Assembly (NCBI GenBank): GCA_002344895.1 | Contig: DDUR01000061.1 | Location: 125,569 to 189,568 of the forward strand | Direction of reading: 5' to 3' | Length of the DNA: 64,000 nucleotides | Source: Ignavibacteria bacterium UBA2333 | GTDB taxonomy: Bacteria > Bacteroidota > Ignavibacteria > Kapaibacteriales > Kapaibacteriaceae | Shown: positions 10,528 to 63,914 of the stretch, one piece after another | Numbering within the stretch: the stretch's first letter is position 1 | How the letters are laid out: each line of letters begins with the position of its first letter | Translations under genes and position numbers: made by a program | The notes under the pieces: generated by a model | Told to the model about the DNA's origin: nothing | Seen by the model: the letters and a program-made list of their open reading frames with translations, nothing else | Database searches by the model: none

Positions 10528-10820
10528 CGATGTTCCCTTCGAGTACGAGCCTTTTGTAGTTGTCGTTCGATAATCAGATCGGCCAGCAGATCAGGCACGT
10601 CAGGAGGAATGGCTGTCGTAAAGATCTCATTCACACGCTGTTCCTGGACATCAATACGATACAGCGCAGCCATTAACCGCTCAGGATTTGACGTCAGGAG
10701 TTGAATGATTCTGTTCACAAGTGCGGCTCGAACGGCCTCGAGTGATTCAACTTCGTCAAGATCAAAGGTCAGAGAAATTTTCTCTGCAGCACTTCGCGCT
10801 AGTTCATCGTCAGATGACAT
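10524..10820 (-). CDS. Hypothetical small acidic protein of 98 aa.
   Basis: The ORF sits between hutI and the guanylyltransferase gene with 4-nt overlaps on both sides. I recognise no motif. Confidence 0.3.
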   Translation of the reverse strand: MSSDDELARSAAEKISLTFDLDEVESLEAVRAALVNRIIQLLTSNPERLMAALYRIDVQEQRVNEIFTTAIPPDVPDLLADLIIERQLQKARTRREHR

Positions 10821-12911: not shown

Positions 12912-12939
12912 TCTGCGAAGATCGGAATTCTCCCGGCCA

Positions 12940-13677: not shown

Positions 13678-13679
13678 GC

Positions 13680-15829: not shown

Positions 15830-15920
15830 CACAGGCCTCTACTGCCTATTTTTGTCGTTCGTCGCGTCAGAGTGACGCATTCATCCCGTCCGTCCAACCA
15901 TGTCATGACCTTTTGGAGCC

Positions 15921-18080: not shown

Positions 18081-19378
18081 TGAAATGTCCGTCACGTCGC
18101 CCCTTTCGCGCCTTAACCCTCATCACACTCTTTGTGGGAGTGATGGGTGCGGCTCACGGTCAACCTGCGTTGGAACGTATCGTTGCCGTTGTCGGCAAAG
18201 AAATCGTCACGCAGTCCGACGTTGACGGTCAGATCGAGGTACTCCTTCAGCGAGACAAGTCGATACGGCGTGACGATCCTGCCGTACGGCAGGCCGTTCT
18301 CGACCAGCTCATAAACGAGCGTCTCATCATGACAAAGGCTCAGGAAGATTCGGTAGAGCCGAGCGAAGAAATGGTGACTGAGCGAATGGAGCAGCAGCTT
18401 GCATACTTCATTCAAATGTATGGTTCGGAGAAGCGCTTTGAAGATGTCTATGGCATGAGTATCGCTCGTATCCGTCGCGAATTCCGCGACGAGATTCGTA
18501 AGCAGCTCATGGTAAAGATGATGTTAGATCGGAAGTTCTCAGATGTAAAGGCGACACGCGGTGATGTTGAGAATTTCTTTAACCGCTTTCGCGACTCGTT
18601 GCCGACCATACCGCCACGTGTGGACCTGTACCACATTGTAAAGTATGTGAAGGCTTCTGATGAGCAACGACGAGAAGCGCTCGAACTTGCAGGGAAGATT
18701 CGTGACTCGATCGTTGCTGGTGCTCCGTTTGCCGACTTTGCACGGCGGTACTCCGGCGATCCCGGATCTGCCGCCAATGGTGGCGATCTTGGATTCGTTG
18801 AACGCGGAAAGTTTGTAACGGCTTTTGAGAATGCAGCCTTTGCTCTCGAACCGGGAGAGATATCACTGCCGATCGAAACACCGTTTGGATATCATGTTAT
18901 TCAACTTATTGGGAAGACAACGTCTGCAATCAATTGCCGGCACATTCTGTTAAAGGTGGGCCAGTCAGATGCTGATAAGGAAGCAGCGCAGGCAGCCTTA
19001 AAGGATATCAAAAAGCGCGTTGAAGGCGGAGAAGATTTTGAGAAGCTTGCGCGCGACCTGTCCGACGAACGTGAGTCTGCTGGTTTTGGCGGCGCAATGG
19101 GACAGATTGAGTTTGATCGTATGCCAGATGAACTGCGTTCAACGTTGATGAACATTCCAGACAAAGGTGTCAGCGATCCCCTACCCTACGTCGCAGACCC
19201 TACAAAGCCAGGATATCACGTTCTCTACAAGAAGGGTATACTTCCTGAACACAAGGCCACCCTCGAGTCTGATTACAAACTGCTCGAAACCATGGCGACA
19301 CGTGAGAAGCGTTCACGCCTTGAGCTCGACTTTGTAGAGGAACTGCGGAAGACGGTCTATTGGGAAGTTCGTAAGTAG
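18080..19378 (+). CDS. surA: Periplasmic chaperone/PPIase SurA.
   Basis: There is a signal peptide, followed by the SurA N-domain 'RIVAVVGKEIVTQSDVDGQIEVLLQ'. Parvulin signatures are present (CRHILLKVGQ; FGYHVIQL). Confidence 0.8.
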   Translation: MKCPSRRPFRALTLITLFVGVMGAAHGQPALERIVAVVGKEIVTQSDVDGQIEVLLQRDKSIRRDDPAVRQAVLDQLINERLIMTKAQEDSVEPSEEMVTERMEQQLAYFIQMYGSEKRFEDVYGMSIARIRREFRDEIRKQLMVKMMLDRKFSDVKATRGDVENFFNRFRDSLPTIPPRVDLYHIVKYVKASDEQRREALELAGKIRDSIVAGAPFADFARRYSGDPGSAANGGDLGFVERGKFVTAFENAAFALEPGEISLPIETPFGYHVIQLIGKTTSAINCRHILLKVGQSDADKEAAQAALKDIKKRVEGGEDFEKLARDLSDERESAGFGGAMGQIEFDRMPDELRSTLMNIPDKGVSDPLPYVADPTKPGYHVLYKKGILPEHKATLESDYKLLETMATREKRSRLELDFVEELRKTVYWEVRK

Positions 19379-19441
19379 GTCTGGAGCCGAGTCGTTGTAT
19401 ATCGTGCATTCGTACGATGTTCGTCAAGTCCGAGGACACGA

Positions 19442-21406
19442 TCACCAGCTTTGCGAGATGGTTGCCCGGAAGATTGTCTCGCGATACGTGCCGCCATACA
19501 CTGCAGGCACTACGCGTTCATCAAAGATATTACGTTCAGCACGTATGTCGATGTTCGCATACTCACCAAGGGCAGCTGTTACTCCGATATGATATCCTGA
19601 ACGAGCACCATAGGTATCATCCAGTGCAAGCATGAGTCCGGCATTACATGATAGTTCATCAAACACGGAGTAAGAACCTCCTATGTCAACGGTTACAATT
19701 CCATTATCCGGCTGGCCAGCGGCCGACTGAACGATGTAACCCAATCCAGCCGTTACGGACAACGGGAAGACGAAGGATAGCGACTGTTGAACGTTCACGG
19801 ACGTTACGCCATAGTCTGAAGCACCCCGAAGTGTTGAGCTGTTCTGTTGGCCATAGGTAAGTGTTGTTCCTGCACCCATTGATCCTATCCGATAATTGTA
19901 TCCGGTGGTGACATTTAACACCGTCGTACGATTGTCGAACCGCAGTAGAGTATCCGTGGCATCATTAATCTGTGCATACGGCGCGTACGACACTCTTAAA
20001 AAAGGCCAGCGTCGGATATTGAGGCCGAGTGTTCCACCGAGTGACGTGATGGTTGTTGTGCTACGTTTCCATGGTATGAGGTTGTCGAGGTCACGTCGGT
20101 AAAACAACCCAACACTCATTTGTCGTTTCCAAAAGGATTGATCTGCACGAACATCATACCGAAGGATGTCTGTTCGCAGGTTGGGTACGGCAAGAGCACG
20201 ATATCCCGGGCCAATACGCCGAATACTTGCGGTAAATCGTGTGCCTGTTTCTCGAATGTTGACAGCTGTTTGTGCGGTGGCAGCCCAGTCGAAGTATGAC
20301 GACGCTGACGAGTCCGAGAGGCCAAGGAGGAATCCTGGAACGTCGTCATCAGAGAGTGTTGGAGCAGTTCTATCAGCAACCGTGAGAGATACTGCTGCTT
20401 CTGCCTGCATCGACCACACACCTTCAATCGGCTCAACACGAAGATCGAGTCCGGTTAACATGTTCTTCTGAGGTGTAAGTGCCGTATTCGAATCAGTCAG
20501 TGCAACACTAACTGGATCGTCCTCAACAAACATTCCGGTGAGAAAGACGTGTGATCCATCACGTCTGCCGACACCTAGTCGAGCCGCATATAGGTGACGT
20601 CCGTAGGCGGAATTGTCAGCCGACGTAAACAGTCCACTGTCAACGCGCACGGAGTCGAACCGCAACAGCGGGCGTTGCATTGTACCACCGGTAACGTGGA
20701 CATAGAACCAACCTGGATTCCATTCGAGCATAGCTCCCTGGATTCGTGCGCCACTCAGTGTGATGGGTGTAAAGGTTGGGAAGACTGTGCCAACGCCAAC
20801 GGTTGGCAATGAAGCCATCACGCGTTCAACGTCTGACATAAACCCCATTGATGACAGAACATCTGTGTAGTCCGATATGTCGCCTTTTGCAACATCACGC
20901 ATTTGTTGGAGCTTTCGATATTCCTCGAGTTCCTTTAATCTTTCCGGATCTACTCGTTGCAGACTATCACGCACCTCATCATACGAATCGAGCAGCTGTC
21001 CGGCCTCCGTACGTGCATAGTCGTTCAGTGCAGCATAAGCACGCTGTGTCACGATACGTCGAACAGCGTCGGGATCCAACGTCAACGAAAAGGCATTGAT
21101 GTTCTGCCGCACATCTCGTTGTTCACTACTCACAAGAACACTTGCTGTGAGAGGAATTCCGTAAAAGAGCAGGCTCGGATTCAGCTCTGCCCTCCACAGA
21201 TCTGGAGGTTTTTCCTGGAACGATCCTTGTCGTGATGCCGACTGTCCGAGTAATCGATAACTCCCCGTGACAATGACAGGTGCTTCGCCACTCCGAGAGC
21301 CAAACACAACAAACGGATTGCGCACAGGACCATTCTGATCCTGTGCCGAGGCCACAGACAGTGCTGCCACGAGAACGAGGGCGAACCCACCAAGTTTTGT
21401 CAACAT
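19442..21406 (-). CDS. Putative outer-membrane beta-barrel protein of unknown family.
   Basis: There is a signal peptide (MLTKLGGFALVLVAALSVASAQ). The C-terminal half shows alternating amphipathic beta-strands and ends in an aromatic residue (...ISQSW). The gene lies 13 nt downstream of the RCC1 gene on the same strand. Confidence 0.5.
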   Translation of the reverse strand: MLTKLGGFALVLVAALSVASAQDQNGPVRNPFVVFGSRSGEAPVIVTGSYRLLGQSASRQGSFQEKPPDLWRAELNPSLLFYGIPLTASVLVSSEQRDVRQNINAFSLTLDPDAVRRIVTQRAYAALNDYARTEAGQLLDSYDEVRDSLQRVDPERLKELEEYRKLQQMRDVAKGDISDYTDVLSSMGFMSDVERVMASLPTVGVGTVFPTFTPITLSGARIQGAMLEWNPGWFYVHVTGGTMQRPLLRFDSVRVDSGLFTSADNSAYGRHLYAARLGVGRRDGSHVFLTGMFVEDDPVSVALTDSNTALTPQKNMLTGLDLRVEPIEGVWSMQAEAAVSLTVADRTAPTLSDDDVPGFLLGLSDSSASSYFDWAATAQTAVNIRETGTRFTASIRRIGPGYRALAVPNLRTDILRYDVRADQSFWKRQMSVGLFYRRDLDNLIPWKRSTTTITSLGGTLGLNIRRWPFLRVSYAPYAQINDATDTLLRFDNRTTVLNVTTGYNYRIGSMGAGTTLTYGQQNSSTLRGASDYGVTSVNVQQSLSFVFPLSVTAGLGYIVQSAAGQPDNGIVTVDIGGSYSVFDELSCNAGLMLALDDTYGARSGYHIGVTAALGEYANIDIRAERNIFDERVVPAVYGGTYRETIFRATISQSW

Positions 21407-21419
21407 TGTGCTGACGGTT

Positions 21420-24323
21420 TTACGGTGTTGCCAATCGCTCAACGCGAATTGGTCCTAGAGGTGGGTCAAGTGGCACAGCGGTAAGATTCGTAATCGGCCC
21501 TTCTCCTAGCTGACCGTATTCGTGTGTTCCCCATGACCATAGTCCACCGTCAGCACGAACGGCCATGGCAAACGTACTTCCTGCGGAAAGGCCAACAACG
21601 GCATCGAGACGTGAGATCTTGACGGGTGTAAAACGGCCCACACGCGATCCGTCACCAAGTTGACCAAGGACGTTATTTCCCCATGCCCAGACGGTTCCTG
21701 TTGAATCGAGAGCCAAGGAGAACGTACCACCAGCGGAGATGGCCTTAATCTTGGGCAACCCTTGCACAACCATCGGCTGATGTCGGTCCTTCGTTGTGCC
21801 ATCTCCAAGCTGACCACTTGCATTTCCGCCCCACGTCCACACTCGCCCATCCTTTCCAAGTGCCATCGTGTGATGATCACCAGCACTCACAGCAATGACG
21901 TCGTACCGAGTAGTTGAAGGGCCCCCAACGGGAGCAAGAACGGGCCACCAGATGGCAGCGGCGGTATCGTCATCAAATCCACATTGGCCATGGTCATTGT
22001 TACCCCATGTGTACACGTTACCTGTCAGTGATAACGCAACGGAGTGTGAATGACCTGCAGCAACCTGACGGATCCCCTTTAACATCCCATGTTTCAGTGG
22101 CTTTGGAATGTGGAGGATTCGTTTGATCTGCGATGCCGTTGCTGGTGTTGAAAGTTCAAAGTTGATGATGGTACCACATTCCCAGGTGCGGTTGTACCCC
22201 CACACATACACGTCACCCTTTTTCGAGAGTGCTAGAGAGTGCCGGCTTCCAGCAGCCACCTGAACTATGTCGGCAAGGCCTAACGACACCGGCTCTGACT
22301 TTTGCTCGCGGCTATCCGTACCAAGTTGCCAGTAGTCGTTATACCCCCACGCCAGGACGTCTCCGGACTGCGTGACCGCTAGCGAATGGTCCATTCCCGA
22401 CGCAAGAGACTGAACGTTTGTTGCTTTGGCAATTTTTGACGGGACCGGTACAACGGCTCCATACGGTTTGGCAACGGATTTACGCAGATTGTCGCCCCAC
22501 CCCCACACAATATTTGGACGCGGCAACATCGCAAGGGAAAGTTGCGATTGTTTTTTCATGATTTCGGGTGACACGTCAACAAGTTGATATTCCGGTCCGT
22601 CTGGTTCATCTTCACTTGATGTTGCGCCCGTGAACCCAGATGTATATTTCTGCATACCTGCGGCTGACGCAAACTTTGACTTAAGCTGCGTTGACGTGCC
22701 GTCGATAACGTTTACCTCATCCAGGATTCCCGAATTCCCCTTCAGTGTTGTAATGTCCTTCGTCAGCTGCTCACGAATCTTGACTGGCAGTTTCTCCGGT
22801 GGCGTTGCGACAAGAGCGTGATTCTCGCCCGCGTCAAGCACCAGCACAGGAAGTTTGACGGTGTCATCCTTCTCTGCATCATGGAAGGTAAAATAGTCGA
22901 CATTGATATGTGCGGATTGTGACGAGTCTCTGATGAGGATGTAGGCGGCACGGTTAAGGTACTTTACAACGTCCCAATCGACGGGTACAAGCCTATCAGA
23001 TGTGCCCCTGCGTTCATCAGCATCGGTAGAGTACAGAACAAGAAACTCTTTTGAGCTTCCAGCCAGTTTGCGTGTGCGCATGGAACCGACCGTGTCCTTG
23101 GCAAGGCGCTCTACAAGAAGCTCAACGTTGGCCATGGGGGAAACTGAGCCACCTACAAGGAAACTCACGACGCTGTGCTTAATCTGAAACTCTTGTGAGA
23201 GCATACTACCCATCGCTGCGTCACCGTCAGCAGCCCCGAGTGACGTGACCCAGTATTTGGCATGATGTCCAAGTGTGCCTAATACGGCGTGTGATTCTTT
23301 TACAGGATCATCAACAAACGATGTCCCGTCAACCGTCCAACACGACAACGTACCTAACTCAAAATCCCAGTTTTCGCCTGGACACGGTATGTCTGCAGCG
23401 AGGTCATCTGTTGCAATAACCGGTGTGCCCCTTCCGCCCCCTCCCGACGTTGTATCTCGTCCGGTGTCATCACGTCCGTCACCGTCATCATCATCACCAC
23501 CATTATCAGCAGATGACGGCATATAGGTAAACGACCATATCTCAGATTCACCGAGTGGGATTCGTGCGCGTGCGCCGTCTTCAAACGCAGCAATTTTCCA
23601 CGCATACCGTTGCTGTGGTTGGAATCTGCGTGCCGAAACGGGATACTGAAGTGTTACGCGTGGCAGACGCTGCTGTTCAAACCATGCAGGATTTCTGGCG
23701 ATGGCGTCGGCAGGCGTCTGTTTTCCGAAAATCTCCACAACGCGAATGTCGTATGAGATACGTTGACCCGGCCCAGGAGGCATACTCGGCATCCATGAGA
23801 ACACGGGTAATAGCTCGGCCACATCTGACTCGTCAGGCGGAGTAATAAGAATCGGGATTGTTAACCTATTTATGATCACAAACTTACAGTCGCGTCCAAG
23901 CACCTGATCATTCTCTGCGAGGATTACCTCGCAGCAGATCGTGTAGTCGCCTGTAGGGACACTTCCCGTTTGTAATAGTGCGTCGCGATATCGAGGATTG
24001 GATTCATCAACGGTCACAGGCTGGACATCATTTCCGGTAACACGTGTACGTCCGGGCTGCAGCGTAAACACCTTCGTACGCGCGTCTGCGATGATACCAT
24101 CAGGTATTGACGTTTCTTCTGCGGTACCATGGAGATAGACCTCCAGGGGACGTCCAGACTGATTGTCGAGATCAATTTTCCAGAGATCACCAATTCGTAA
24201 TTGATTTGGTGGTGGCTGGGTTAATCGAATGGTAACGCGCTCCTGGCTCCGTGACGATTGAATCGTCAAGAGTAGGAATAGGACGGCTATCAGTGCGCCC
24301 CCGCGACTGTGTCTTCTCCTCAT
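21420..24323 (-). CDS. Secreted protein with a C-terminal RCC1 (regulator of chromosome condensation / ATS1-like) repeat beta-propeller.
   Basis: At least six repeats match the RCC1 pattern, including AGSRHSLALSKKGDVYVWGYN..., AGHSHSVALSLTGNVYTWGNNDHGQCG, AGDHHTMALGKDGRVWTWGGNASGQLGDG, AGGTFSLALDSTGTVWAWGNNVLGQLGDG and AGSTFAMAVRADGGLWSWGTHEYGQLGEG. There is an N-terminal signal peptide (MRRRHSRGGALIAVLFLLLTIQSSRSQ) and an Asp/Gly-rich linker. Confidence 0.75.
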   Translation of the reverse strand: MRRRHSRGGALIAVLFLLLTIQSSRSQERVTIRLTQPPPNQLRIGDLWKIDLDNQSGRPLEVYLHGTAEETSIPDGIIADARTKVFTLQPGRTRVTGNDVQPVTVDESNPRYRDALLQTGSVPTGDYTICCEVILAENDQVLGRDCKFVIINRLTIPILITPPDESDVAELLPVFSWMPSMPPGPGQRISYDIRVVEIFGKQTPADAIARNPAWFEQQRLPRVTLQYPVSARRFQPQQRYAWKIAAFEDGARARIPLGESEIWSFTYMPSSADNGGDDDDGDGRDDTGRDTTSGGGGRGTPVIATDDLAADIPCPGENWDFELGTLSCWTVDGTSFVDDPVKESHAVLGTLGHHAKYWVTSLGAADGDAAMGSMLSQEFQIKHSVVSFLVGGSVSPMANVELLVERLAKDTVGSMRTRKLAGSSKEFLVLYSTDADERRGTSDRLVPVDWDVVKYLNRAAYILIRDSSQSAHINVDYFTFHDAEKDDTVKLPVLVLDAGENHALVATPPEKLPVKIREQLTKDITTLKGNSGILDEVNVIDGTSTQLKSKFASAAGMQKYTSGFTGATSSEDEPDGPEYQLVDVSPEIMKKQSQLSLAMLPRPNIVWGWGDNLRKSVAKPYGAVVPVPSKIAKATNVQSLASGMDHSLAVTQSGDVLAWGYNDYWQLGTDSREQKSEPVSLGLADIVQVAAGSRHSLALSKKGDVYVWGYNRTWECGTIINFELSTPATASQIKRILHIPKPLKHGMLKGIRQVAAGHSHSVALSLTGNVYTWGNNDHGQCGFDDDTAAAIWWPVLAPVGGPSTTRYDVIAVSAGDHHTMALGKDGRVWTWGGNASGQLGDGTTKDRHQPMVVQGLPKIKAISAGGTFSLALDSTGTVWAWGNNVLGQLGDGSRVGRFTPVKISRLDAVVGLSAGSTFAMAVRADGGLWSWGTHEYGQLGEGPITNLTAVPLDPPLGPIRVERLATP

Positions 24324-24621
24324 GTTCGGCCTCTCGAACGCCGTGAACCTTGTTTTGAACCGTTCCGAACATACCACGGAAATCGTTCCGTGCAACATCA
24401 CGGAACATCATCAGACAATGTTTGGCCTTGTTTGGCTCACATCTGGCAACAACGCTGTCGATGTGATGAACTGTCCGATATGCCGTAGTTCAGTTTGGCG
24501 CACCCGACGATCTCACGAAGGAAAATGTTCCCTCCACATGGAACAGAAATCATTCTGAGTTGTACGAGTCGATTCGTGGCGTATGTTCGCCACAGGTTCA
24601 TGTAACAGGGAGGAGTTGGCG
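24324..24621. promoter_or_regulatory. Divergent intergenic/promoter region between the RCC1 operon and the giant-gene operon, containing operator-like inverted repeats.
   Basis: A perfect 7-bp inverted repeat with a 4-bp spacer, CACGGAA-ATCG-TTCCGTG, lies at 24375–24392. A palindrome GAAC-C-GTTC lies at 24357–24365, and further GGAAC/GTTCC half-sites follow. GGAGG lies 9 nt upstream of the ATG at 24622. Confidence 0.4.
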
Positions 24622-27600
24622 ATGAAGAGGATCGCCCTCAACGTTGGCGCAATTTCGCGGCGACGCATACCTCGCATTTCGGCTGATGCACGCTCTGCGG
24701 TTGTTGCATTGGTTGGTGCCGAGAGTGTCGTCCTGAGCAGACGGCGCGCCCTAGGCGTGGCCGGTGCGCTTGGTATTCTTGCAGCTCCTGCGGCTCGTGC
24801 CGTAGAGAGTGCACTTTCAGATTCCTATCGAATTGTACGCCGTGGACAGCGTATCGCCATCGTCGTTGCCGACGTTGAGCGGTGGGTTCTCGACCCGTCC
24901 ATGTTCGACGGTAGTCCCGAGACGTTCTATTCGGAGTCCGACGATGGTATTCGCCTGGAACTCCGCCATGCACGATATCCCGGCACATCGATCTCGGCCG
25001 ATATTGTTGCCGAGATTTCACGCGGCACAACACCCGTCGTGCGATTTACGGGTCCGCTATTTGCTGCCCCTTCGTCCGCACCGTTACTTGCATGGCTGCT
25101 CGAACGTGAGAGATACGAAACAACGTGCGCCGTTCGTGCACTGAAGGGATTGCAGTTTGCGGCAGTACTACCCAACGCATCAACGATACGATTTCGGCCT
25201 ACGTGGTCCTTTACCGTCGATGGTCGTGCTGACGTTACGATTGACTCGTTACAGCTACCGTGTGACCGACTTGATGTCCAACTGTTAAAGGCACAACGGT
25301 CGCGTCCATCGTCTCTACTTTCCGGCTCTGCATCGTCTGGTACGTTCCTTCGTGCTGTTCGCGGTACATCTGCGTGGAACATTCCCCTTCAGTTTTCTGT
25401 GAGCCCATCGGCAGAACTTGAGGTTGATGCCGATGCGTTTGACACGTGTTCACTTGAAGTACGCAGTGATGGTCGATTTGCAGGTTTGCTGGAAGGGGGC
25501 CGAGAAGGGGCAAGTAGATTCCAACTCATTCATCATGATGGCCATGTTGGATTCCGCGACGTTCGATATGCATGGACATCGGCAAATGGTGATCGTCATG
25601 AGGCCTTTGTTGCACGATATGCGTCAACACCATCGTGGATTCGCGCACATGGTATTGCCTTTGAGATAAGTGATCGCGAAGGTTTACCTGCATGTGAACT
25701 TGTACGACGTAATGGAGTTGTAGAGCGGTTTGTTGTTGCTCCGGCACTGAACCGCTATCACATCTCGGTTGCAAACGCAGCAACGGAACCAACGGCGGTT
25801 CCCGCCGCATCACAACTTGCCTTCCTGTGTTCGGCTGTTGCACCATCTGCGCTACCAAAGCCACACTTCGCTATGACAGCCGTTCGGCTGGAACCGGCAC
25901 AACAGTTTTCGCAGCAAACACAGATTGATGTCTTCAAAAAGGATACAAAACCGAATATTAAGGTTGGCAAACAATCTGGACGGTGGAGCAAAAAGCCAAT
26001 TGTGTTTGCGACAAATCCGCGCGTTACTGTTATCCGTCCTGAAGACCTGCTCGTCCTGACGTTTGAGTTCCAGAACATTACACTCAACAAGGCTGCGGGC
26101 ACGTTTGCGGCGAGTGGAACAAACTCACGATTAATCGTCCACTTCCAGCCACAGCACATTGCTGAGCGAGCGTTCTTCTATGTTACGGACGACGACACGC
26201 CGAAGGATAAGGTAAATGCCTCTGAAGCACCGGCCAGTGCGCCGAAGAATCAGTCAGGGAACGAGCCTCGTCTTGACCCACCGATTGAGGCCATCATGGC
26301 TCATTCGTCGCGACTTGTCTTTTCCCTTCCGAACGGACACTCCGGTAAGTTTTCTATTGAGGGATTACTCGACTGGTCAAAGCTGAAAATGGTTGTCTCG
26401 CCATCAGCCAAACCGCCTGATGCCGAGTTTGTATTGAGTGTGCTGGCAAAGTCTGCCGTCTCAAAGTTTGGTGGCATTACTGCACCTAAGGATCCCAAGC
26501 CGGGTGGATCGTTCCTCGCCAAAAAGGGCAAAACATCTCAGACAAAGACGTATGCTCTCAGTGGTGGAATAGCGTCGAAGGTAAAATCTTCCACGAAGGC
26601 AGTTGTTGAATCGAATGCCGACATTGCCACCACGATCTCGCCTCAGTTACAGGCAGAGTTAGCAGCAGCTATACTTGAAAAACCGCCGATTCGTGAACCG
26701 AAAGATGACGAAACGGCAATCGAGTATCCGTATCGGCTGTTTATGTCGCCGAACAAGTATGCGGCCTGGGCACACAGCACAAAGGCAAAAATTGACGACG
26801 AACGGCGCGCCGAACTTTGGCATACACGACTCGGCGTACTGCATGCCAGCGGCGAAGTCAACGAAAATGCTGCCTACTTCCGGACGATGCGGGCAATATG
26901 GACGCCCGACATGAAGATTGCCTACAACGTAACGTCGGCAGCTCGTGAGCGTCCGTTCCGTACATCGATTAACAGACGTGACCGGCGCGAACTTGTTCAG
27001 CTCATGAGTGACTATTCACTCAAGGACACGGAAGTAAAGCCGGTTGATGTAAAACGGTTTATGATGACATCACTCGGCGCTTGGGCAGACATGACAGGTG
27101 TCTGGGATCCAAAGGACGGCGAGCTTGACGTAGAACAATGGATTCAGCGCGGTACTCAGGGACGTGATCACTTTGTGCGTATCTGTTACAAAGGTTATCT
27201 CTTCCCGTTTGGACATCGTGCGACACTTGTGAAGGAAACGGAGCGCAAGTTCCGACGGACACCTCGTGGTGACATGGCTGCCTACCTCATGCAGCGTATG
27301 TACATCATCCTGCGTCAACCCGTACGTGACTATCCTGCAGCTGGACTTGCTGGTATGCAGTTCCAGGGTCGGGAGTTCCCCTTCCGTCGAATCACAATTA
27401 CAACGAAGATCACGCCAAATCTTTACGATCCTGGGCTTACGGCCTTGGATGTAGCGAACATGGGGCCAAACTCATTCTGGCCTCAGTTTGACGCAAACGG
27501 TCCGGTTGACGTGAAGTGGTCGTGTATTGGCACTGATTGGGATAATAACGAAGTACACTTCAGTGCACCTCTGGCCTTTATCGCCAACACGGCCGCTATT

Positions 27601-29727
27601 GGAGACAAGTGCCAATCGTGGATTAACAACACGTATAAAAACGAAACAGCACGGCGTACGCTGGAAATGGGCGGTCAACAAATCGCTTATGCAGCATCCG
27701 TCAAACTTGGCGACACGTCACTCCCGACAGGCAAGTTCACACTCCACGGTTACTACGCTCCTGAAGCCGAACAGTACACACCGCGCTTTTTCCCTCGTAT
27801 GGAGAAGTCGAAGGTTCGTATTGAGAAGGTTGCAGAGTTAACGGGCAACAGTGGTGAACGCGATGTTGAGTTCTTTACGAACTACCTCAAACATGCCTTC
27901 GAAAAGGGCCAGTCGTTCTCGAAGGGTGTTGTACCTGCTGCAGATCAGGTAAAAAATCCATCGCAGATCTTCGTTCGTCTTGTTGACAAGCTTGGATTGG
28001 ACTTTGGATCTCAAAGCGACAAGGCAGGCGGTCTTGCCGCACCAAGTCTTGACATCAGTGGCCTGTCCAGACTTATGGGACCGATCGCCGGTGATCTTAA
28101 GACGGACATTGAAAAAACTGCAGCGGCTATCGGAAACTTCGATCCGATGCAGTACTTCGAAAGTCTGTTAAGTGCAAAGATCCTGGGTGATATCACCTTA
28201 AAGGATGTACTCGACTTTGTGATGGACGTCCTGAACAACCTTGACAAGATGCCGTCACTCGACAAGAAGGACGACTTCGGTGTAAAGGATGCCATCAGTA
28301 AGGCCATGCCGAAAAACGAGCTCCTTCAGGCTCTCACGGACAAGATAGCGGAGACGGACCTCGTGAAGTCGGCGGCCGAAGAGCTCAACGCCGTTGCTGG
28401 TGAGCTCGACAAGGACGTAAAGGACGCACGCGACGCCCTGCTCGCAGAAATTGCAGATCTCAAGTCGGAAATCAACGAAGCCAAGAACAAGATCCAGTCG
28501 GACGTTGAAGAAGTAAAGAAGGCCATTGAAGACCGCGTTAACGAATGGAAAAAACGACTCGAGGACAAGGCAAACGAACTCAAGAGTGAGATTGAGAAGG
28601 CCATTAAGCCGCTTGTTGATGCTGGCAACGAAGCCTACAAGAAATACGAGCAAGCACAACAGGCGCTGAATGCGCTTAAAAAGGGCCTTAACCTTTCGTA
28701 TGAATGGCAAACCGAGATCAAGTCGTCACCAGGCAACATTCTTGTTCCTCTATATCCAGGGGCAACAACAAAGGAAAAGAAAGCGATACTCTATCTCAAA
28801 GCGTCGTTCACGAAAAAACTCGACCTTGAGCCGCCTGAGATCTTGATCTATGGATCACTCTCGAACTTTGTTATCAACTTGATTGGTGATGGAGCTGCCC
28901 AGTTCCTCATCATCAAGTTTAATCGACTTGCTGTATCCGCCAAGATTGGCCAGAAGCCGGATGTTGACCCCGACATTGAGGCCGTAGAGTTTGCTGGGCC
29001 ACTGGCCTTTGTCAACAAGCTCAAGGACCTCATCCCAACCGGCGGTTCAGCTGGAGGTGTTGGATTCTCCTTTGACCTCAACGTCAACTCAGCCGGCATC
29101 ACGGCCTCACTGACCATCGGCCTCCCGAACGTCACGGTAGGTGTGTTCTCGCTCATGAACATGTCCTTCCTCATGAGCTTGACGATTCCGTTTGATGGCC
29201 GGAGTTTTTCGTCATACTTCGCCTTCTGTACACGCGAGAATCCATTCCGGCTCACCATCATGATGTTTGGTGGTGGTGGATTCTTTGGCATCGAGATTCA
29301 ACCGTCGGGCGTGCGTATGCTCGAGGCGGCGTTTGAGTTTGGCGGCAACTTCGCCTTTGATTGTGGTGTTGCCTCTGGTGGCGCAAGTGTTATGGCTGGC
29401 GTCTACTACAAACTCGAGCGCAAAGAAATCGATGGCAAGGAAGTTGAACAGTCGGAACTCACCGGATACTTCCGTCTGACCGGCAACCTCAGCATCCTCG
29501 GCATCATTCGCGTTAGCCTACTTTTTGAACTCAAGCTCACATGGCTCAGCACCGGTAAGGTCTTCGGTACTGCCACGATTGAAGTGGAAATCGAGATCCT
29601 CTTCATCAGCTTCTCCGTCGGTGTTACCGTTGAGCGTCAGCTGAAGGGTTCTGACGGAGATCCAACCTTCCACGACATGTTGCCTCAGGCATCAATGTGG
29701 GACACATACTGCAACGCCTTCGCATAA
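24622..29727 (+). CDS. Giant uncharacterised protein of about 1700 aa with a twin-arginine-like N-terminal signal, a central coiled coil and a Gly-rich C-terminal module. I recognise no catalytic motif.
   Basis: It is one uninterrupted ORF. I placed the start at Met-Lys-Arg with GGAGG 9 nt upstream; an alternative ATG lies at 24583. The Tat-like motif is LSRRRALGVAGALGILAAPAARA|VES. The coiled coil is KDAISKAMPKNELLQALTDKIAETDL...EIEKAIKPLVDAGNEAYKKYEQAQQALNALKKG. The C-terminus is ...FGGGGFFGIEIQP...FEFGGNFAFDCGVASGGASVMAGVYYK...TATIEVEIEILFISFSVGVTV. Confidence 0.6.
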   Translation: MKRIALNVGAISRRRIPRISADARSAVVALVGAESVVLSRRRALGVAGALGILAAPAARAVESALSDSYRIVRRGQRIAIVVADVERWVLDPSMFDGSPETFYSESDDGIRLELRHARYPGTSISADIVAEISRGTTPVVRFTGPLFAAPSSAPLLAWLLERERYETTCAVRALKGLQFAAVLPNASTIRFRPTWSFTVDGRADVTIDSLQLPCDRLDVQLLKAQRSRPSSLLSGSASSGTFLRAVRGTSAWNIPLQFSVSPSAELEVDADAFDTCSLEVRSDGRFAGLLEGGREGASRFQLIHHDGHVGFRDVRYAWTSANGDRHEAFVARYASTPSWIRAHGIAFEISDREGLPACELVRRNGVVERFVVAPALNRYHISVANAATEPTAVPAASQLAFLCSAVAPSALPKPHFAMTAVRLEPAQQFSQQTQIDVFKKDTKPNIKVGKQSGRWSKKPIVFATNPRVTVIRPEDLLVLTFEFQNITLNKAAGTFAASGTNSRLIVHFQPQHIAERAFFYVTDDDTPKDKVNASEAPASAPKNQSGNEPRLDPPIEAIMAHSSRLVFSLPNGHSGKFSIEGLLDWSKLKMVVSPSAKPPDAEFVLSVLAKSAVSKFGGITAPKDPKPGGSFLAKKGKTSQTKTYALSGGIASKVKSSTKAVVESNADIATTISPQLQAELAAAILEKPPIREPKDDETAIEYPYRLFMSPNKYAAWAHSTKAKIDDERRAELWHTRLGVLHASGEVNENAAYFRTMRAIWTPDMKIAYNVTSAARERPFRTSINRRDRRELVQLMSDYSLKDTEVKPVDVKRFMMTSLGAWADMTGVWDPKDGELDVEQWIQRGTQGRDHFVRICYKGYLFPFGHRATLVKETERKFRRTPRGDMAAYLMQRMYIILRQPVRDYPAAGLAGMQFQGREFPFRRITITTKITPNLYDPGLTALDVANMGPNSFWPQFDANGPVDVKWSCIGTDWDNNEVHFSAPLAFIANTAAIGDKCQSWINNTYKNETARRTLEMGGQQIAYAASVKLGDTSLPTGKFTLHGYYAPEAEQYTPRFFPRMEKSKVRIEKVAELTGNSGERDVEFFTNYLKHAFEKGQSFSKGVVPAADQVKNPSQIFVRLVDKLGLDFGSQSDKAGGLAAPSLDISGLSRLMGPIAGDLKTDIEKTAAAIGNFDPMQYFESLLSAKILGDITLKDVLDFVMDVLNNLDKMPSLDKKDDFGVKDAISKAMPKNELLQALTDKIAETDLVKSAAEELNAVAGELDKDVKDARDALLAEIADLKSEINEAKNKIQSDVEEVKKAIEDRVNEWKKRLEDKANELKSEIEKAIKPLVDAGNEAYKKYEQAQQALNALKKGLNLSYEWQTEIKSSPGNILVPLYPGATTKEKKAILYLKASFTKKLDLEPPEILIYGSLSNFVINLIGDGAAQFLIIKFNRLAVSAKIGQKPDVDPDIEAVEFAGPLAFVNKLKDLIPTGGSAGGVGFSFDLNVNSAGITASLTIGLPNVTVGVFSLMNMSFLMSLTIPFDGRSFSSYFAFCTRENPFRLTIMMFGGGGFFGIEIQPSGVRMLEAAFEFGGNFAFDCGVASGGASVMAGVYYKLERKEIDGKEVEQSELTGYFRLTGNLSILGIIRVSLLFELKLTWLSTGKVFGTATIEVEIEILFISFSVGVTVERQLKGSDGDPTFHDMLPQASMWDTYCNAFA

Positions 29728-29742: not shown

Positions 29743-32700
29743 ATGGCGACTCAGGAACTACAATGGATGGCGCTTCCCTACGATGTGGAGAAGCGGGACG
29801 GCGCAACGATGTTACGTGTGGCCGTAATGTGTCTTCCAAAACTCCAGGACACTACAACAGCCGATAATACCCTTGCAGAGTATCCGGACTTTACGGACTG
29901 GCCACTCACGCTGCAGGGTATACTTATTGGTCTGAACATCGGTGGAACAAACATCCCACCGACGGACCTCACACCTGTTGATGACGCACCGGACTCGGAG
30001 ACATGGAAGGCCATCTTCCGCCCGACAACTCTCGTGCGCCCGTTTGAGTACAAGCCGTTTACAGATTTTCGGATTTTTTCCTATCCGGTTGGACTTGTAC
30101 AAAAGACAACGGCAGACCTGCTGACGTCCCTTGCAAAGTCCTATGTGAATGTTGAACCGCTTGTACCTCCAATGGGCAACAATGTTGGAGGTATCAACAA
30201 CGACAAACTTTCCTCCGTCGGCGCACAGGATCCTGCCCTTCAACAGCTTTCGCAGATTCTGTTACCCTACATCGAAACAGAGAAAGATGAGATTCAGCTC
30301 AGGTCGTTAAAGCAGCGCTGGGAAACCGAAGGCCGAAACGCAACACTCATGATGATGCGCCAGGAGACGGCTCCAAAACAACAGCGTGATGTGCGGAAGG
30401 GGCCCGTAGAGGTTCCGAGTAATCCTGAGACAATGCTTGAACGACCTGTTTCTCTGGCAACACCCGTTGGCCAGTTACAAATGGTTGAGATCTATCACAC
30501 ACCAAGGAACTATGCTGTTGACGGTGTTGTGAATGGTAAAAAATTACCGCGTGTACAGCGCGTAAAACCGTCACGTCCAAAGTTCGACTTCCATCAGGTT
30601 GTGAGCGTCATGCGTGATTATCCCGTGATGCTTCGCCGTCTTGGCCTTGTTCGTCACTTTGAGTTTAAGATGCCCGATGGCATGTCGGCAAACGGAAAAA
30701 TCCGCGTCAATGTAACGTTCCCTTCACCAAAGGTTGGAACAAAGAACGTTGTACCGTGGACAGCATATCGACTTACAACGTCCGGTGATGCTGCCTACTG
30801 GCAGTTCCTGCCACGTCCTGATAGTGATTCGGAGATTGTTGGGCCGGTACTGTGCCTTAACGACACGACGAATTACGACGTTGTTCAGATTGATGTTGAT
30901 ACTTCAGCAATGAAGACACTCAACTTCACACGCGCTGTTGTTGGTCGACTTAAAAAGACAATGAATACGCGGGATCAGAAGGCCGATGCTTCTCCACCTG
31001 CCGTTCGCGGTACCGGACTACAACTTATTCGCGTTAATCGCGGGTTAAAGCTGGCAAAGTCCCTCATCCGAAATGCAAAAAATTATAACCGTCTTGTTGC
31101 GAATGAAGAGGTAACACTCTACGCAGATGATGTGCTGCGCGGTTATCGAATCGACGTCTTTGATGCGAAGGATAATGCGTGGCGCTCCCTCATGCGTCGG
31201 AATCTTACGTTAAAGTTTCCGGAGGCCGCAACACCAGCTCTTCGTAACACCGGCGTCACCGTCAACGACGAAGAGGGAGTGCTATCGTTTGCAGCCACAC
31301 GACCTGTTTCTCCCGACCCCAATGCCATGCGCAGTCTGTATGCACATGAAACCATTGCTCAGTGGGAGAATTGGTCACTCGTTGCTCCGCGTATCGGCTC
31401 GTTTATTGGTGCCGAAGACGAGCTTCAACCAGATCAACCAACACAGTCATCACCGAACGACTTTGAGTATCGTGTTGACTCTACAGCGTCGATTGTTGCA
31501 AAGTCGCTGCCACGTCTACGATATGGAAGGAAGTACAGACTACGTGCTCGTATCGTTGATGTAGCTGGTAATGGCCCTGCACTCGACGAACTCAATCCGC
31601 TCGACTTCACATGTGCAACGGAACTCATAACGTATCTGCGGTGGGATCCAATTGTATCGCCAACAATCGCTCTCAGGAATCACCCGATCGAAGGTGAATC
31701 TCTCGAGCGTATGGTGATTCGCACGTTTAATGAATCCGACGACGAAACCGTTTTGCCCCCTATCGAAGCCCCTTCCCTTCGTCATGTCTTCCCACCAATG
31801 GCAAGTGTGGAAACGTGTGAGCGTCATTCCTTGTTCGACGATGAGGTTTCTGGCTCGATGAAGTCGGACATGTACGACATCATCGTAAAAAAGACAGGCA
31901 AGACTGGACAACCCGCAGACGTACCCACACAGTGGTATGAGCGTTCTGCAAGTGGTGGACTTGTTCCACTTGGAGCCATCAACACAACTCCTCCCGTTGC
32001 AAAACAGCAGAATGCGATTCGATATCCCATTGCACAGGTAGACAAGGCCGTAAGCCCATACCTGCCTGATCCAATGTCGAGGGCCGTAACGTTCCAGAGT
32101 GTACCGGGCATGAATGCCAACGAGTTGCTGGAAATCTCGATGAGTGGTGTTTCAACTGCTGCCATCACATCGGCCACAGGTGTCGTAACAGTTGCGTTTG
32201 ATGGACTTGCCAATTGGCCAGACGTTGAGAGTATTCTTCTCAAGCTCGATGAAGGAACAGAGAAACCGTCATGGGATGCGGGAACAAAGACGCTGACCAT
32301 CCGCCTGCCAAAGGGCGAACAGGCATGGATTCGATTCTCATCATCATTGGGAACTGATCAGACAGAGGCCGACACACGTTCGGCACTTCATGGTCACATG
32401 TCAACGCTCAACAAGGCAAACGTTACCGGTGGAGCACTCAAAGCTGCCGTACGCGGACTTTCCTGGCTCATCACACCTGGCCGCACACTACACCTCGTCC
32501 ACGCAACACAAAAGCCTCTCAAGAAGCCAAAGGTGGTGAAAGGGGCTGTAAAGGGGCGATGGTTTGATTCAACCAATGCGCGCATTCATCTTACAGAGTT
32601 GTACTGTGATGCACGGTCAACACAGAAGGTAGACATCTCGGCACATTGGGAAATGGACACCGACGATGTTTCGAAACCGGCACCGGAAAAGCTTCAGCAG

Positions 32701-34029
32701 AAAGCACACGTTGGTGATCGTCATGCCGAGAATCGGACAGACGATACAATCGACTTTGACAAAACGCAGGAGTTTGGCGATACGAAGTATCGTCGGATTG
32801 AATACTTACCAACAGCAACTACTCGATTCCGCGAGTTTTTGCCTTTGATACGCAAAAACACCAACGACAAGATTACACGGCTCGGACAAGGGATCACACT
32901 CGATATCCTTTCATCAAAACGACCGGATGGTGTTGATCTGCTCTACGTCGTTCCGTCCTTCCGTTGGGTTGAAGAAAGCAAAACATTTGCCAATGGCCTC
33001 GTAAAAAGCACCCGTAAGGGTGGTGGCCTTCGTGTCTACATGAACAGGCCTTGGTACTCATCTGGTAACGGCGAACTTCTCGGCGTGATTCTCTACTCGT
33101 CAAAAAAATTCTCAACGGGACAGAATGCACCACCAGCCGACAATGGAGTGGGTGGTGGTTCGGGTAACATCACGTTTCAAAAGGGCATAAAGGACTTCTC
33201 GAAATCGAAGGTTGCTACGAATATCGACCTGGCGTTAAACAACCGACTGGATATTCCTGAGCAGCTTCAGCCCTACGTTACGCAGTGGGGCCTGGATCCG
33301 ATCTGGCTTTCTGCACCTACTCCGGCAGATGCTGCTCCTCGTATCCAGAACTTCCGTGTGCCCGACATTGTCCTTGACAGTGTAAGCATTGAAGAGGTGC
33401 CCGCTTCCCAACGATTTAGCGTCATAGGTTACGAACCAAAGTTTGACGCAGAACGTAAACTTTGGTATTGTGACATTGAGGTTGATCCGGCTGAGAGTTA
33501 TTGGCCGTTTCTTCGCCTTGCTCTTTGCAGGCTACAGCCGAAGTCGGTTGCTGACTCACAAACAGGGCGTGACGTCTACGTTTCGCGCATTGTCCAGTCT
33601 GAGTTCTGTCAGCTCGCTCCAGATCGTGAGGCTACGGCCCGTGTTGACGATGGTGACGCTACGGTCACCGTACAGGTGGTCGGCCATACGTATCGTATGA
33701 ACACGGCAGGACATCAGGGCTCCGATATCGAAGTCACCATTGAGCGCCGTAAACCATCAGCAGGTGGTGAAGATCTTGGTTGGGAACCTGTCGTAACACA
33801 ACGTATTGACCGACTCCACGGAGCAAACATGTGGGGTGGTACGATTCCGGTTCAGGGCGGAGTAAATTCTGCTCAACATCGTGTTGTCATCAAGGAATAC
33901 GAACAGTTCTTTGTTGATCCAGAGAAGAATCGTGATTCAAACCTTGGTGACCCCGTTACTGGTGAAGGCGCTATGACGTTCTCACTCGACAAGCGTATTG
34001 TTTACGCTGACATCTTACCACTCTTCTAG
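29743..34029 (+). CDS. Giant uncharacterised protein of 1428 aa with no recognisable domain or signal peptide, coupled to the upstream giant gene.
   Basis: It is one uninterrupted ORF starting 13 nt after the upstream stop. I see no Walker A, HExxH, GxSxG, YD/Rhs or T9SS CTD motifs. Coding-like codon periodicity is maintained throughout. Confidence 0.6.
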   Translation: MATQELQWMALPYDVEKRDGATMLRVAVMCLPKLQDTTTADNTLAEYPDFTDWPLTLQGILIGLNIGGTNIPPTDLTPVDDAPDSETWKAIFRPTTLVRPFEYKPFTDFRIFSYPVGLVQKTTADLLTSLAKSYVNVEPLVPPMGNNVGGINNDKLSSVGAQDPALQQLSQILLPYIETEKDEIQLRSLKQRWETEGRNATLMMMRQETAPKQQRDVRKGPVEVPSNPETMLERPVSLATPVGQLQMVEIYHTPRNYAVDGVVNGKKLPRVQRVKPSRPKFDFHQVVSVMRDYPVMLRRLGLVRHFEFKMPDGMSANGKIRVNVTFPSPKVGTKNVVPWTAYRLTTSGDAAYWQFLPRPDSDSEIVGPVLCLNDTTNYDVVQIDVDTSAMKTLNFTRAVVGRLKKTMNTRDQKADASPPAVRGTGLQLIRVNRGLKLAKSLIRNAKNYNRLVANEEVTLYADDVLRGYRIDVFDAKDNAWRSLMRRNLTLKFPEAATPALRNTGVTVNDEEGVLSFAATRPVSPDPNAMRSLYAHETIAQWENWSLVAPRIGSFIGAEDELQPDQPTQSSPNDFEYRVDSTASIVAKSLPRLRYGRKYRLRARIVDVAGNGPALDELNPLDFTCATELITYLRWDPIVSPTIALRNHPIEGESLERMVIRTFNESDDETVLPPIEAPSLRHVFPPMASVETCERHSLFDDEVSGSMKSDMYDIIVKKTGKTGQPADVPTQWYERSASGGLVPLGAINTTPPVAKQQNAIRYPIAQVDKAVSPYLPDPMSRAVTFQSVPGMNANELLEISMSGVSTAAITSATGVVTVAFDGLANWPDVESILLKLDEGTEKPSWDAGTKTLTIRLPKGEQAWIRFSSSLGTDQTEADTRSALHGHMSTLNKANVTGGALKAAVRGLSWLITPGRTLHLVHATQKPLKKPKVVKGAVKGRWFDSTNARIHLTELYCDARSTQKVDISAHWEMDTDDVSKPAPEKLQQKAHVGDRHAENRTDDTIDFDKTQEFGDTKYRRIEYLPTATTRFREFLPLIRKNTNDKITRLGQGITLDILSSKRPDGVDLLYVVPSFRWVEESKTFANGLVKSTRKGGGLRVYMNRPWYSSGNGELLGVILYSSKKFSTGQNAPPADNGVGGGSGNITFQKGIKDFSKSKVATNIDLALNNRLDIPEQLQPYVTQWGLDPIWLSAPTPADAAPRIQNFRVPDIVLDSVSIEEVPASQRFSVIGYEPKFDAERKLWYCDIEVDPAESYWPFLRLALCRLQPKSVADSQTGRDVYVSRIVQSEFCQLAPDREATARVDDGDATVTVQVVGHTYRMNTAGHQGSDIEVTIERRKPSAGGEDLGWEPVVTQRIDRLHGANMWGGTIPVQGGVNSAQHRVVIKEYEQFFVDPEKNRDSNLGDPVTGEGAMTFSLDKRIVYADILPLF

Positions 34030-34054
34030 ATCTACAACAACTGCACACCCGATC

Positions 34055-36796: not shown

Positions 36797-36839
36797 TTCC
36801 GACAATCCCTACGCCCGCCGCTCGTTAACTTTGCTCTCA

Positions 36840-53989: not shown

Positions 53990-54002
53990 CACAATGTGAC
54001 AG

Positions 54003-54077
54003 TCCGGGGCAATTCTCCGGGAGAAATCTCCGGGAGAAATCTCCGGGACAATTCTCCCGGAGAATTCTCCGGGAGAA
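54003..54077. repeat. Tandem array of about 5 copies of a 13–14-bp palindromic unit (TCTCC-N-GGAGA half-sites, e.g. CTCCGGGAGAAAT).
   Basis: This is a direct read of AATTCTCCGGGAGAAATCTCCGGGAGAAATCTCCGGGACAATTCTCCCGGAGAATTCTCCGGGAGAAGG. All six frames are open across the array. Confidence 0.8.

Positions 54078-55913: not shown

Positions 55914-63914
<8,001 letters not shown>

Follow-up and report, generated by a model that had tools for sequence, protein, structure and literature searches.

The secreted RCC1-repeat protein and the outer-membrane protein (OMP) encoded next to each other on the minus strand of the window, i.e., the stretch of 64,000 nucleotides of Ignavibacteria bacterium UBA2333 that was analysed, appear to be the two halves of a split protein. 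The OMP belongs to an unannotated family of large barrels, delineated here as about 3100 clusters at 50% identity. As judged from sequence comparison, the part of the RCC1 protein that is linked to this barrel in a conserved way is not the RCC1 propeller but an N-terminal double beta-sandwich module of about 250 residues (Nmod), the propeller being a lineage-specific C-terminal add-on. To our knowledge, few barrels have 24 or more strands, and all those characterised (LptD, ushers, MtrB, SprA) are machines handling another macromolecule. For the family described here, a clue to the barrel partner is built in, as one and the same beta-sandwich module occurs either in the barrel polypeptide itself or in a neighbouring gene, which makes Nmod and barrel a directly testable protein–protein interaction in poorly studied bacteria of the FCB group. 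The widespread module of two giant genes with a Tat-type signal adds to the genomic dark matter and is physically coupled, by gene neighbourhood, to the barrel system in some lineages.

The gene pair and the conserved module

The features of the locus are listed in Table 1. The original prediction that the RCC1 and OMP genes lie 13 bp apart on the minus strand agrees with the open reading frames: the RCC1 stop codon (TAA) occupies 21422-21420, the OMP start codon begins at 21406, and the gap between them is exactly 13 bp. No terminator-like site was found in this gap, which is replaced by an overlap of 4 bp at homologous loci. An operon-like pair is supported. The head-to-head arrangement with the giant pair was confirmed as well, since the RCC1 gene and the gene of giant A start at positions 24323 and 24622, pointing away from each other.

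Table 1. Coordinates of the features in the window.
Feature	Position	Strand	Description
OMP gene	19442..21406	-	654 aa, start ATG (MLTKLGG...)
RCC1-OMP spacer	21407..21419	-	13 bp, RCC1 stop to OMP start
RCC1 protein gene	21420..24323	-	967 aa, secreted
RCC1-like propeller	21423..22523	-	seven-bladed beta-propeller, aa ~601-967
Middle domain	22764..23333	-	aa ~331-520; jelly-roll-like by sequence pattern only
Nmod	23508..24245	-	aa ~27-272 of RCC1 protein; two beta-sandwich domains
Divergent intergenic region	24324..24621	.	298 bp, between RCC1-OMP pair and giant pair
Giant A (gA)	24622..29727	+	1701 aa
Giant B (gB)	29743..34029	+	1428 aa, no signal peptide

The RCC1 protein starts with ATG (MRRRHSRGG...) and is built, in this order, of a Sec-type signal peptide (ALIAVLFLLLTIQSSRSQ), Nmod, an acidic/glycine linker, the jelly-roll-like middle domain, a second linker and the propeller. 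The OMP has a signal peptide as well (residues 1-22, ending in LSVASA before QD). The RCC1 domain, at about residues 600-967, matches the Pfam families WD40_RLD (E 2.6e-109; 366 bits against a cut-off of 150), RCC1 (E 5e-68; 226 bits over six stretches) and RCC1_2 (178 bits), with repeats above the gathering thresholds of the RCC1-like domains (PF00415 / PF25390). Its relatives in the PDB are HERC2, UVR8 and RCC1 (E 1e-30 to 5e-51; HERC2 RLD, E 4.6e-51). Like these proteins, the C-terminal 370 residues form a canonical seven-bladed RCC1 propeller. Unlike them, the domain is bacterial, Sec-exported and appended to a predicted outer-membrane docking module, and nothing points to a GEF function. 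The N-terminal 574 residues of the protein have no sequence relatives in the PDB. The middle domain matches no family, and it is kept in the partner proteins of Kapabacteria, both with and without RCC1. The RCC1 protein gave no match to the C-terminal Por_Secre_tail sorting domain of T9SS cargo. Another protein of the window (55914-60839) does carry this domain.

Nmod, which contains the conserved motifs QPPPN and DLWK, was present alongside the barrel, fused or unfused, in nearly every locus checked. Among the 146 best family representatives, 65 carry Nmod ahead of the barrel in the same polypeptide, either as both domains (D1+D2) or as D1 alone, and 81 are unfused; single polypeptides of Nmod and barrel are P0059-P0063, P0083, P0084 and L033. 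In the D1-only fusions, D1 abuts the segment preceding the barrel, with almost no linker. An Nmod gene lies in the cluster of almost every unfused barrel locus that was read. Wherever the sequence reaches far enough upstream, which is so in 26 loci (L001-L004, L008-L029), it immediately precedes the barrel. It also accompanies the unfused barrel of a WOR-3 genome (L031); one barrel (P0064) has no Nmod nearby. Since Nmod is fused to the barrel in so many representatives, the pair in the window, with Nmod in the gene 13 bp upstream, can be read as the split version of one protein.

The partner proteins are constant in Nmod and variable in their C-terminus, which consists of RCC1, of other propeller-like repeats, of the jelly-roll only, or of nothing. 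Other propeller-like repeats replace RCC1 in L031, L034 and L043, and the RCC1 propeller is absent from L003, L005 and L024-L027. In the distant locus L041, a fusion of Nmod and RCC1 recurs. The proposed partnership of OMP and RCC1 protein is thus borne out by the natural fusions and by the lack of a match of the OMP to a known family, but it is Nmod, and not the propeller, that is the conserved partner element. Two loci with a fused barrel (L006, L033) encode additional Nmod-bearing proteins. Furthermore, large proteins with a signal peptide and an Nmod-like N-terminal domain of their own occur beside family members in L003 (1373 aa), L006 (1287 aa) and L007 (895 aa).

Fold and identity of the barrel

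The OMP was modelled by AlphaFold as a 26-strand beta-barrel with a mean pLDDT of 82, and DSSP assigned 26 strands both in this model and in that of an Nmod-barrel fusion (P0083). Long connections between strands alternate with short ones, the pattern of canonical OMPs, and the C-terminal residues are ...ISQSW. As the odd-to-even connections are long and the even-to-odd ones short in the model, the N-terminus of the barrel is predicted to be periplasmic. Strands 4 and 5 are joined by a periplasmic turn that contains an insert of about 90 residues with four helices (residues 112-198). In the model of the fusion, Nmod and barrel are connected by a disordered 40-residue linker (pLDDT ~31).

Searches of Pfam, NCBIfam, PHROGs and PADLOC with the OMP, the RCC1 protein, gA and gB returned only RCC1 and coiled-coil noise, and a PDB sequence search found no relatives of the OMP. 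In an exhaustive profile search, seeded by the OMP of the window, 3132 clusters at 50% identity were collected, all from Ignavibacteriota/Kapabacteria-like and WOR-3 MAGs. The family has no Pfam or NCBIfam model, and no description of it was found in the literature searched.

It could be argued that a housekeeping barrel, such as LptD, BamA/TamA or a general porin, happens to lie beside an unrelated secreted RCC1 protein here. The OMP has 26 strands like LptD and adjoins surA homologues, as lptD adjoins surA in E. coli, and BamD is encoded 15 kb off. However, 26 strands are common to MtrB and do not diagnose LptD by themselves; none of the family members tested matched the LptD/OstA models, and the structural scores are weak. 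The POTRA domains and the 16-strand Bac_surface_Ag barrel of Omp85/BamA/TamA/TpsB are lacking. The housekeeping identity is therefore extremely improbable and effectively refuted: the original prediction had named LptD and BamA as identities that would make the position of the OMP coincidental, and no match to these or to any other known OMP family was obtained.

The best Foldseek match for both models was MtrB (PDB 6r2q; TM 0.44, range 0.43-0.47). MtrB is likewise a 26-strand barrel and surrounds a separately encoded partner, MtrA, which is inserted from the periplasmic side. The agreement is one of fold class alone, as the identity is ~10%, there is no MtrB_PioB Pfam match, and the partner is not a multihaem protein with a CxxCH-rich domain but an all-beta module with a propeller. 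The ushers FimD and PapC are among the best structural matches too, but with a TM of only 0.3-0.4. They are set apart by their strand count, by the helical insert of the OMP, and by the absence of an Usher Pfam match and of PapD-like chaperone or pilin genes in the window. LptD/LptE resembles the family, besides the surA neighbour, in its 26-strand barrel, in the beta-rich periplasmic domain that precedes this barrel in cis, and in having its lumen plugged by another protein, but the partner described here is not a lipoprotein and the LptD/OstA sequence match is missing. Finally, type V secretion resembles the family in that the soluble module can either precede the barrel in one polypeptide or be encoded by an adjacent gene, and in that the upstream protein is large with a variable C-terminal part. 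It differs in having 12 or 16 strands instead of 26, and POTRA, TPS, autotransporter and beta-helix passenger signatures were not detected.

The giant pair and its neighbourhood

Giant A carries a Tat-type signal at residues ~39-60 (SRRRALGVAGALGILAAPAARA), preceded by a conserved leader of ~35 residues, and further contains a coiled-coil segment (~1220-1360) and a Gly-rich hydrophobic C-terminal domain. In an iterative HMM search, the latter showed no homology to the C-terminus of the 1373-aa protein of L003. Every full-length homologue of gA keeps the twin-arginine motif (window, SRRRALG; near-consensus forms, TRREFIG in L045 and GRRQFLK in L104), followed in each by ...AAPxAxA. Although the Pfam TAT_signal match is sub-threshold (17 bits against 22.7), gA has the marks of a Tat substrate, i.e., the S/T-R-R-x-F-L-K motif, a moderately hydrophobic h-region and an AxA cleavage site, and is predicted to be exported. 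gB is found directly 3′ of gA in 72 of 79 related loci. Neither protein belongs to a known family or has sequence relatives in the PDB, and the two genes appear to constitute a widespread, unannotated module. Outside Kapabacteria, the pair has no conserved neighbours, with at most seven loci having any family in common. In one locus (L005), gB is followed by a 664-aa gene of which 55 residues are readable.

It had been suggested that the giant pair and the RCC1-OMP pair form one functional unit of at least four genes. The giants adjoin Nmod and OMP in Kapabacteria. Elsewhere they do so in no fewer than four other arrangements (L034, L041, L043, L106; probably also L005), which differ in gene order, orientation and genomic context. 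This supports a functional link in those lineages. In addition, propeller-bearing Nmod partners are commoner where giants are present, with RCC1 (window type, L041) or other repeats (L034, L043). On the other hand, the metagenome scan showed that 64 of the 79 giant loci have neither Nmod nor OMP, which makes the four-gene unit lineage-specific. Most members of the barrel family also lack giants, and barrel and Nmod occur without them in L003, L006, L024-L027, L031, L033 and L035. The link to the giants is thus facultative. The four-gene neighbourhood was indeed retained in relatives, but in Kapabacteria the shared gene order runs from SurA over Era to BamD and so includes the housekeeping neighbours as well.

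A docked-partner model and its alternatives

The analysis shows how the genes are arranged and which domains they encode, a modelled 26-strand barrel, fused and split forms of one architecture, the patterns of synteny and a Tat motif. On this basis we tentatively favour the following model, which as a whole we hold at slightly less than an even chance. The usual layout of the family would be a 26-strand barrel with one or two Nmod beta-sandwich domains at its periplasmic N-terminus. In Kapabacteria, Nmod is instead carried by the upstream gene, where it would have been extended by the jelly-roll-like domain and the RCC1 propeller. Once exported by Sec, the RCC1 protein may dock through its Nmod in trans at the periplasmic mouth or in the lumen of the barrel, by analogy with LptE, MtrA or the usher plug in other barrels of 24-26 strands; that the two proteins form one complex is, by itself, very probable. 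The propeller would then be held on the periplasmic side of the outer membrane as a protein-binding adaptor. Its likeliest ligand in Kapabacteria may be the Tat-exported gA, with the signal-less gB carried along, and the gA/gB complex would thereby be tethered to the outer membrane.

The split-protein part of this model is based on the fusions, the upstream adjacency, and the constant Nmod with its variable C-terminus. Docking is suggested by the periplasmic N-terminus in the model, by the almost linkerless D1-only fusions, and by the best structural analogues (MtrB, FimD/PapC), which are large barrels housing a partner or plug. A simple 1:1 plug does not explain the extra Nmod proteins in L006 and L033. 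Further points against the model are the disordered linker of the modelled fusion, the barrel P0064 with no Nmod in its vicinity, and the housekeeping genes within the Kapabacteria synteny. The link to the giants relies on five gene orders (window type, L005, L034, L041, L043), the renewed fusion of RCC1 to Nmod in L041, and the Tat motif of gA. Since most giant pairs lack Nmod and OMP and most barrels lack giants, a contact between propeller and giants is weakly grounded.

Alternatively, the barrel could be a dedicated translocon or anchor for export or surface display, autotransporter-like when fused and two-partner-like when split. In that case, Nmod would serve for recognition or as the leading part of the passenger, and a binding module made up of the jelly-roll and the RCC1 propeller would come to lie on the cell surface. 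The other large secreted proteins starting with Nmod in related loci would be further cargo. We consider this unlikely, although several observations fit it. Nmod precedes the barrel in the classical autotransporter order, both fused and split forms being known, and the Nmod-like N-termini of the large proteins in L003, L006 and L007 resemble a shared targeting tag. Moreover, ushers show that a lumen of 24-26 strands lets folded Ig-like domains through. However, the RCC1 propeller, once folded, exceeds Ig-like pilins in width, the D1-only fusions have next to no linker with which to span the lumen, type V signatures are missing, and neither a chaperone nor an energy source dedicated to an export route was found. 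The N-terminal domains of LptD, ushers, TonB-dependent transporters and BamA are periplasmic or lumenal. Surface display or a dedicated export route, as originally proposed for the pair, is thus possible but not favoured, the modelled topology placing the attachment of Nmod on the periplasmic side.

The barrel-Nmod complex could also be independent of the giants, as a gated channel or a structural element of the envelope. Their adjacency in Kapabacteria would then be inherited synteny, and the propeller would bind another periplasmic or envelope ligand. The many giant pairs and barrels that occur without each other speak for this reading, as does the extended Kapabacteria block. The adjacency of the modules in four or five gene orders and orientations and in different contexts argues against it, together with the frequency of propeller-bearing partners near giants, and we regard it as improbable. 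Still more doubtful is a combination of export and giants, in which Nmod and barrel would be a new outer-membrane export or anchoring system of the Ignavibacteriota/Kapabacteria/WOR-3 group with cis (autotransporter-like) and trans (two-partner-like) forms, Nmod a transferable targeting tag, and RCC1, in Kapabacteria, the adaptor coupling a Tat-exported gA/gB complex of ~340 kDa to this system. If true, folded Tat cargo would be handed to an outer-membrane machine.

The gene pair and its barrel

The ORF list and the sequence itself, read directly, bear out the original prediction that the genes for the RCC1 protein and its outer-membrane barrel partner (OMP) are neighbors on the minus strand, divergent from the genes for giant A and giant B. 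Exactly 13 bp, without a terminator-like hairpin, separate the TAA stop of the RCC1 gene from the ATG of the OMP gene, and 298 bp separate the RCC1-gene start from giant A. The RCC1 protein begins with MRRRHSRGGALIAVLFLLLTIQSSRSQ, a Sec-type signal without a lipobox, and the OMP with MLTKLGGFALVLVAALSVASA|QD. Residues ~600-967 of the RCC1 protein form an RCC1-like propeller (Pfam WD40_RLD, E 2.6e-109), the nearest solved relative of which is the HERC2 RLD (E 4.6e-51); this domain is in itself ordinary. No Pfam, NCBIfam, PHROG, PADLOC or PDB sequence family was matched by the first 600 residues of the protein, by the whole OMP or by the giants, coiled-coil noise at giant A residues 1220-1360 being the sole exception.

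Features of the window and of two homologous loci (L003, L007)
Feature	Coordinates	Strand	Remarks
Tandem SurA/PpiC-type periplasmic chaperone genes, 719 + 432 aa	15921-19378	+	Converge on OMP-gene 3' end
OMP, 654 aa	19442-21406	-	ORF listing, direct sequence reading
RCC1 protein, 967 aa	21420-24323	-	ORF listing, direct sequence reading
Giant A, 1701 aa	24622-29727	+	Divergent from RCC1 gene
Giant A residues 1-60	24622-24801	+	Leader and twin-arginine motif
Giant B, 1428 aa	29743-34029	+	Begins 15 bp past giant A
351-aa protein, SRPBCC (Polyketide_cyc2) + GyrI-like domains	33998-35053	+	Overlaps giant B end by 32 nt
Era GTPase, BamD/YfiO lipoprotein, protein with T9SS plug first domain	35903-39357	+	Rich in envelope-biogenesis genes
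578-aa protein with lamin tail domain (LTD)	52370-54106	-	
1641-aa secreted protein	55914-60839	-	Reprolysin-type metallopeptidase, CARDB, two LamG, T9SS C-terminal sorting domain
L003, three secreted proteins	11942-20012		After OMP
L007, 895-aa protein	10001-12688		Several tandem copies of Nmod sub-domains

The AlphaFold2 model of the OMP (34-sequence alignment, mean pLDDT 82) has 26 beta strands, joined odd-to-even by 8-26 and even-to-odd by 2-6 residues, which is the canonical alternation of extracellular loops and periplasmic turns; the C-terminal residue is aromatic. Only between strands 4 and 5 is the turn not short: it holds a four-helix insert of 91 residues, which by its position in a turn of the model would lie on the periplasmic side. 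The top Foldseek match of the OMP and of one fused homologue is MtrB, likewise of 26 strands, at TM 0.43-0.47, with ushers, SlpA and SprA ranking below. A confident assignment to LptD or BamA, which would have counted against the original prediction, was not obtained: neither is among the best 50 Foldseek matches of the OMP, and a housekeeping barrel of this kind is essentially excluded.

Fused and split forms of the barrel

The barrel corresponds to one half of a single protein, and the N-terminus of the RCC1 protein to the other. In locus L006, a single 822-aa protein aligns with its N-terminal part to RCC1-protein residues 12-267 and with the remainder to OMP residues 45-654. In L003 (OMP identity 49%), the upstream gene product is just 468 aa long, aligns to RCC1-protein residues 30-476 and lacks the RCC1 domain. 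The shared element is Nmod, the first ~250 residues with two beta-sandwich domains (D1 and D2), and seven natural Nmod-barrel fusions turned up already in the first sets of homologues. When 1.84 billion cluster representatives were searched exhaustively with a profile, the barrel family came to 3132 members at E<=1e-3, including 668 at E<=1e-30, and Nmod is fused N-terminal to the barrel in 65 of the 146 best representatives. Both beta-sandwich domains are present in ~35 of these fusions and D1 only in ~27, where hardly any linker separates it from the pre-barrel segment. The AlphaFold model of one fusion, P0083, places the beta-sandwich domains at 21-140 and 147-251, followed by a disordered linker and a 26-strand barrel; its strand 4-5 helical insert is short, that of split forms long. 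Pfam families were matched by none of 53 diverse family members, and all source annotations read 'hypothetical protein'. Hosts are Kapabacteria, Chlorobiota, Ignavibacteria, WOR-3 and similar MAGs.

Among 34 inspected loci (L001-L034), barrels that are not fused nearly always share their cluster with an Nmod gene, which in most cases lies immediately upstream and overlaps the barrel gene by 4 bp; the orphan barrel P0064 is one exception. Toward the C-terminus, Nmod proteins vary. This part consists of a jelly-roll (aa ~331-520 of the RCC1 protein, so called from its sequence pattern) plus RCC1 in ~20 Kapabacteria species arranged as in the window, of RCC1 without jelly-roll in L041, of other propeller-like repeats in L031 (a WOR-3 genome), L034 and L043, and of the jelly-roll by itself in L003 and L024-L027, and is missing in L005 and L106. 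Nmod is therefore the part of the partner that is conserved, and the RCC1 propeller an add-on that can be exchanged.

Some large secreted neighbors also start with an Nmod-like domain (1373 aa in L003, 1287 aa in L006, 895 aa in L007). The L007 protein is followed by proteins of 1977 and >2665 aa without family match, and no barrel was detected inside that locus. In L003, L026 and L027, which have the barrel and no giants, the OMP is followed by three unannotated secreted proteins, namely the 1373-aa protein, which has a Gly-rich C-terminus, one of 797 aa with fn3-like repeats and one of 519 aa; these may be alternative partners or cargo. The tandem SurA/PpiC layout is kept in Kapabacteria, including the giant-free loci L024 and L025.

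The giant pair

Giants A and B are a widespread, unannotated two-gene module. A metagenome scan gave 455 giant A relatives, and giant B directly follows giant A in 72 of 79 fetched loci. The pair stands alone, without Nmod or barrel, in 64 of these loci; Nmod or barrel is also present in only 8, and no other conserved neighbor was found among the 79. Giant A comes in two forms, one of ~1700 aa with a Tat-type signal and a 'short' one of ~1200 aa (44 of the fetched metagenomic loci), which lacks the first ~460 residues and the signal. All full-length homologues share the N-terminus RLNLxALR...[S/T]RRx[A/F]LGxAG...AAPxAxA, a predicted twin-arginine signal, which comes close to the consensus in distant homologues (TRREFIG, GRRQFLK); the Pfam TAT_signal match is below threshold. 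The motif is preceded by a conserved leader of ~35 residues (M-x-R-x-R-L-N-L-x-A-L-R...P-R), a feature that Tat signals do not usually have and that homologues at 30% identity still retain. Giant B never has a signal peptide. The SRPBCC/GyrI-like protein lies downstream of giant B in some Kapabacteria loci, at variable distance.

Gene orders joining giants (gA, gB), Nmod and barrel
Locus	Order
Window type	gB<-gA<- ->Nmod-RCC1->OMP
L034	OMP->gA->gB->Nmod-propeller
L041	gA->gB->Nmod-RCC1->OMP
L043	Nmod->OMP->gA->gB->Nmod-propeller
L005	Nmod->gA->gB->(putative 664 aa)
L106	Nmod->gA->gB

Proposed docking at the outer membrane and its alternatives

Sequence, predicted structure and gene neighborhood together best support a reading in which the RCC1 protein and the barrel would form one outer-membrane complex via Nmod, although as a whole this docking model stays tentative, a little short of an even chance. 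Nmod would sit at the periplasmic mouth or in the lumen of the barrel, the simplest placement because the barrel N-terminus is periplasmic and D1-only fusions are almost linker-free; the strand 4-5 insert could be part of the docking site. No characterised barrel with at least 22 strands is known to have an empty lumen; the space is occupied in cis or in trans. Such occupants are the plugs of TonB-dependent transporters, ushers and SprA, as well as LptE and MtrA. A large barrel with an occupying partner is an already known kind. New are the unannotated 26-strand family, sizeable in metagenomes, its cis/trans relationship with the double beta-sandwich module, and its coupling, in certain lineages, to a giant pair that is widespread, likewise unannotated and predicted to carry a Tat signal. 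The propeller would serve as an adaptor kept at the outer membrane, and its most plausible ligand in this lineage would be giant A, predicted to be exported by Tat, perhaps with the signal-less giant B along; confidence in such a contact is much lower than in docking.

The main rival, that the barrel serves export or surface display as originally suggested, has the autotransporter-like domain order in its favor, as well as the recurrence of Nmod at the N-terminus of several large neighbors, like a tag they have in common, but we consider it rather unlikely. Less probable still is that the complex exists without a tie to the giants. The proposed four-gene unit stands as far as adjacency is kept in several gene orders; given the shuffling, this genuinely speaks for a functional link in the lineages concerned, but not for one in the many giant pairs that stand alone. 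The neighborhood is also conserved in Kapabacteria, as anticipated; this is weaker evidence, since synteny there extends over the entire block from MurC and SurA to Era and BamD.

The sorting domain of the 1641-aa secreted protein implies that a T9SS is present in the organism; the RCC1 protein does not use it.
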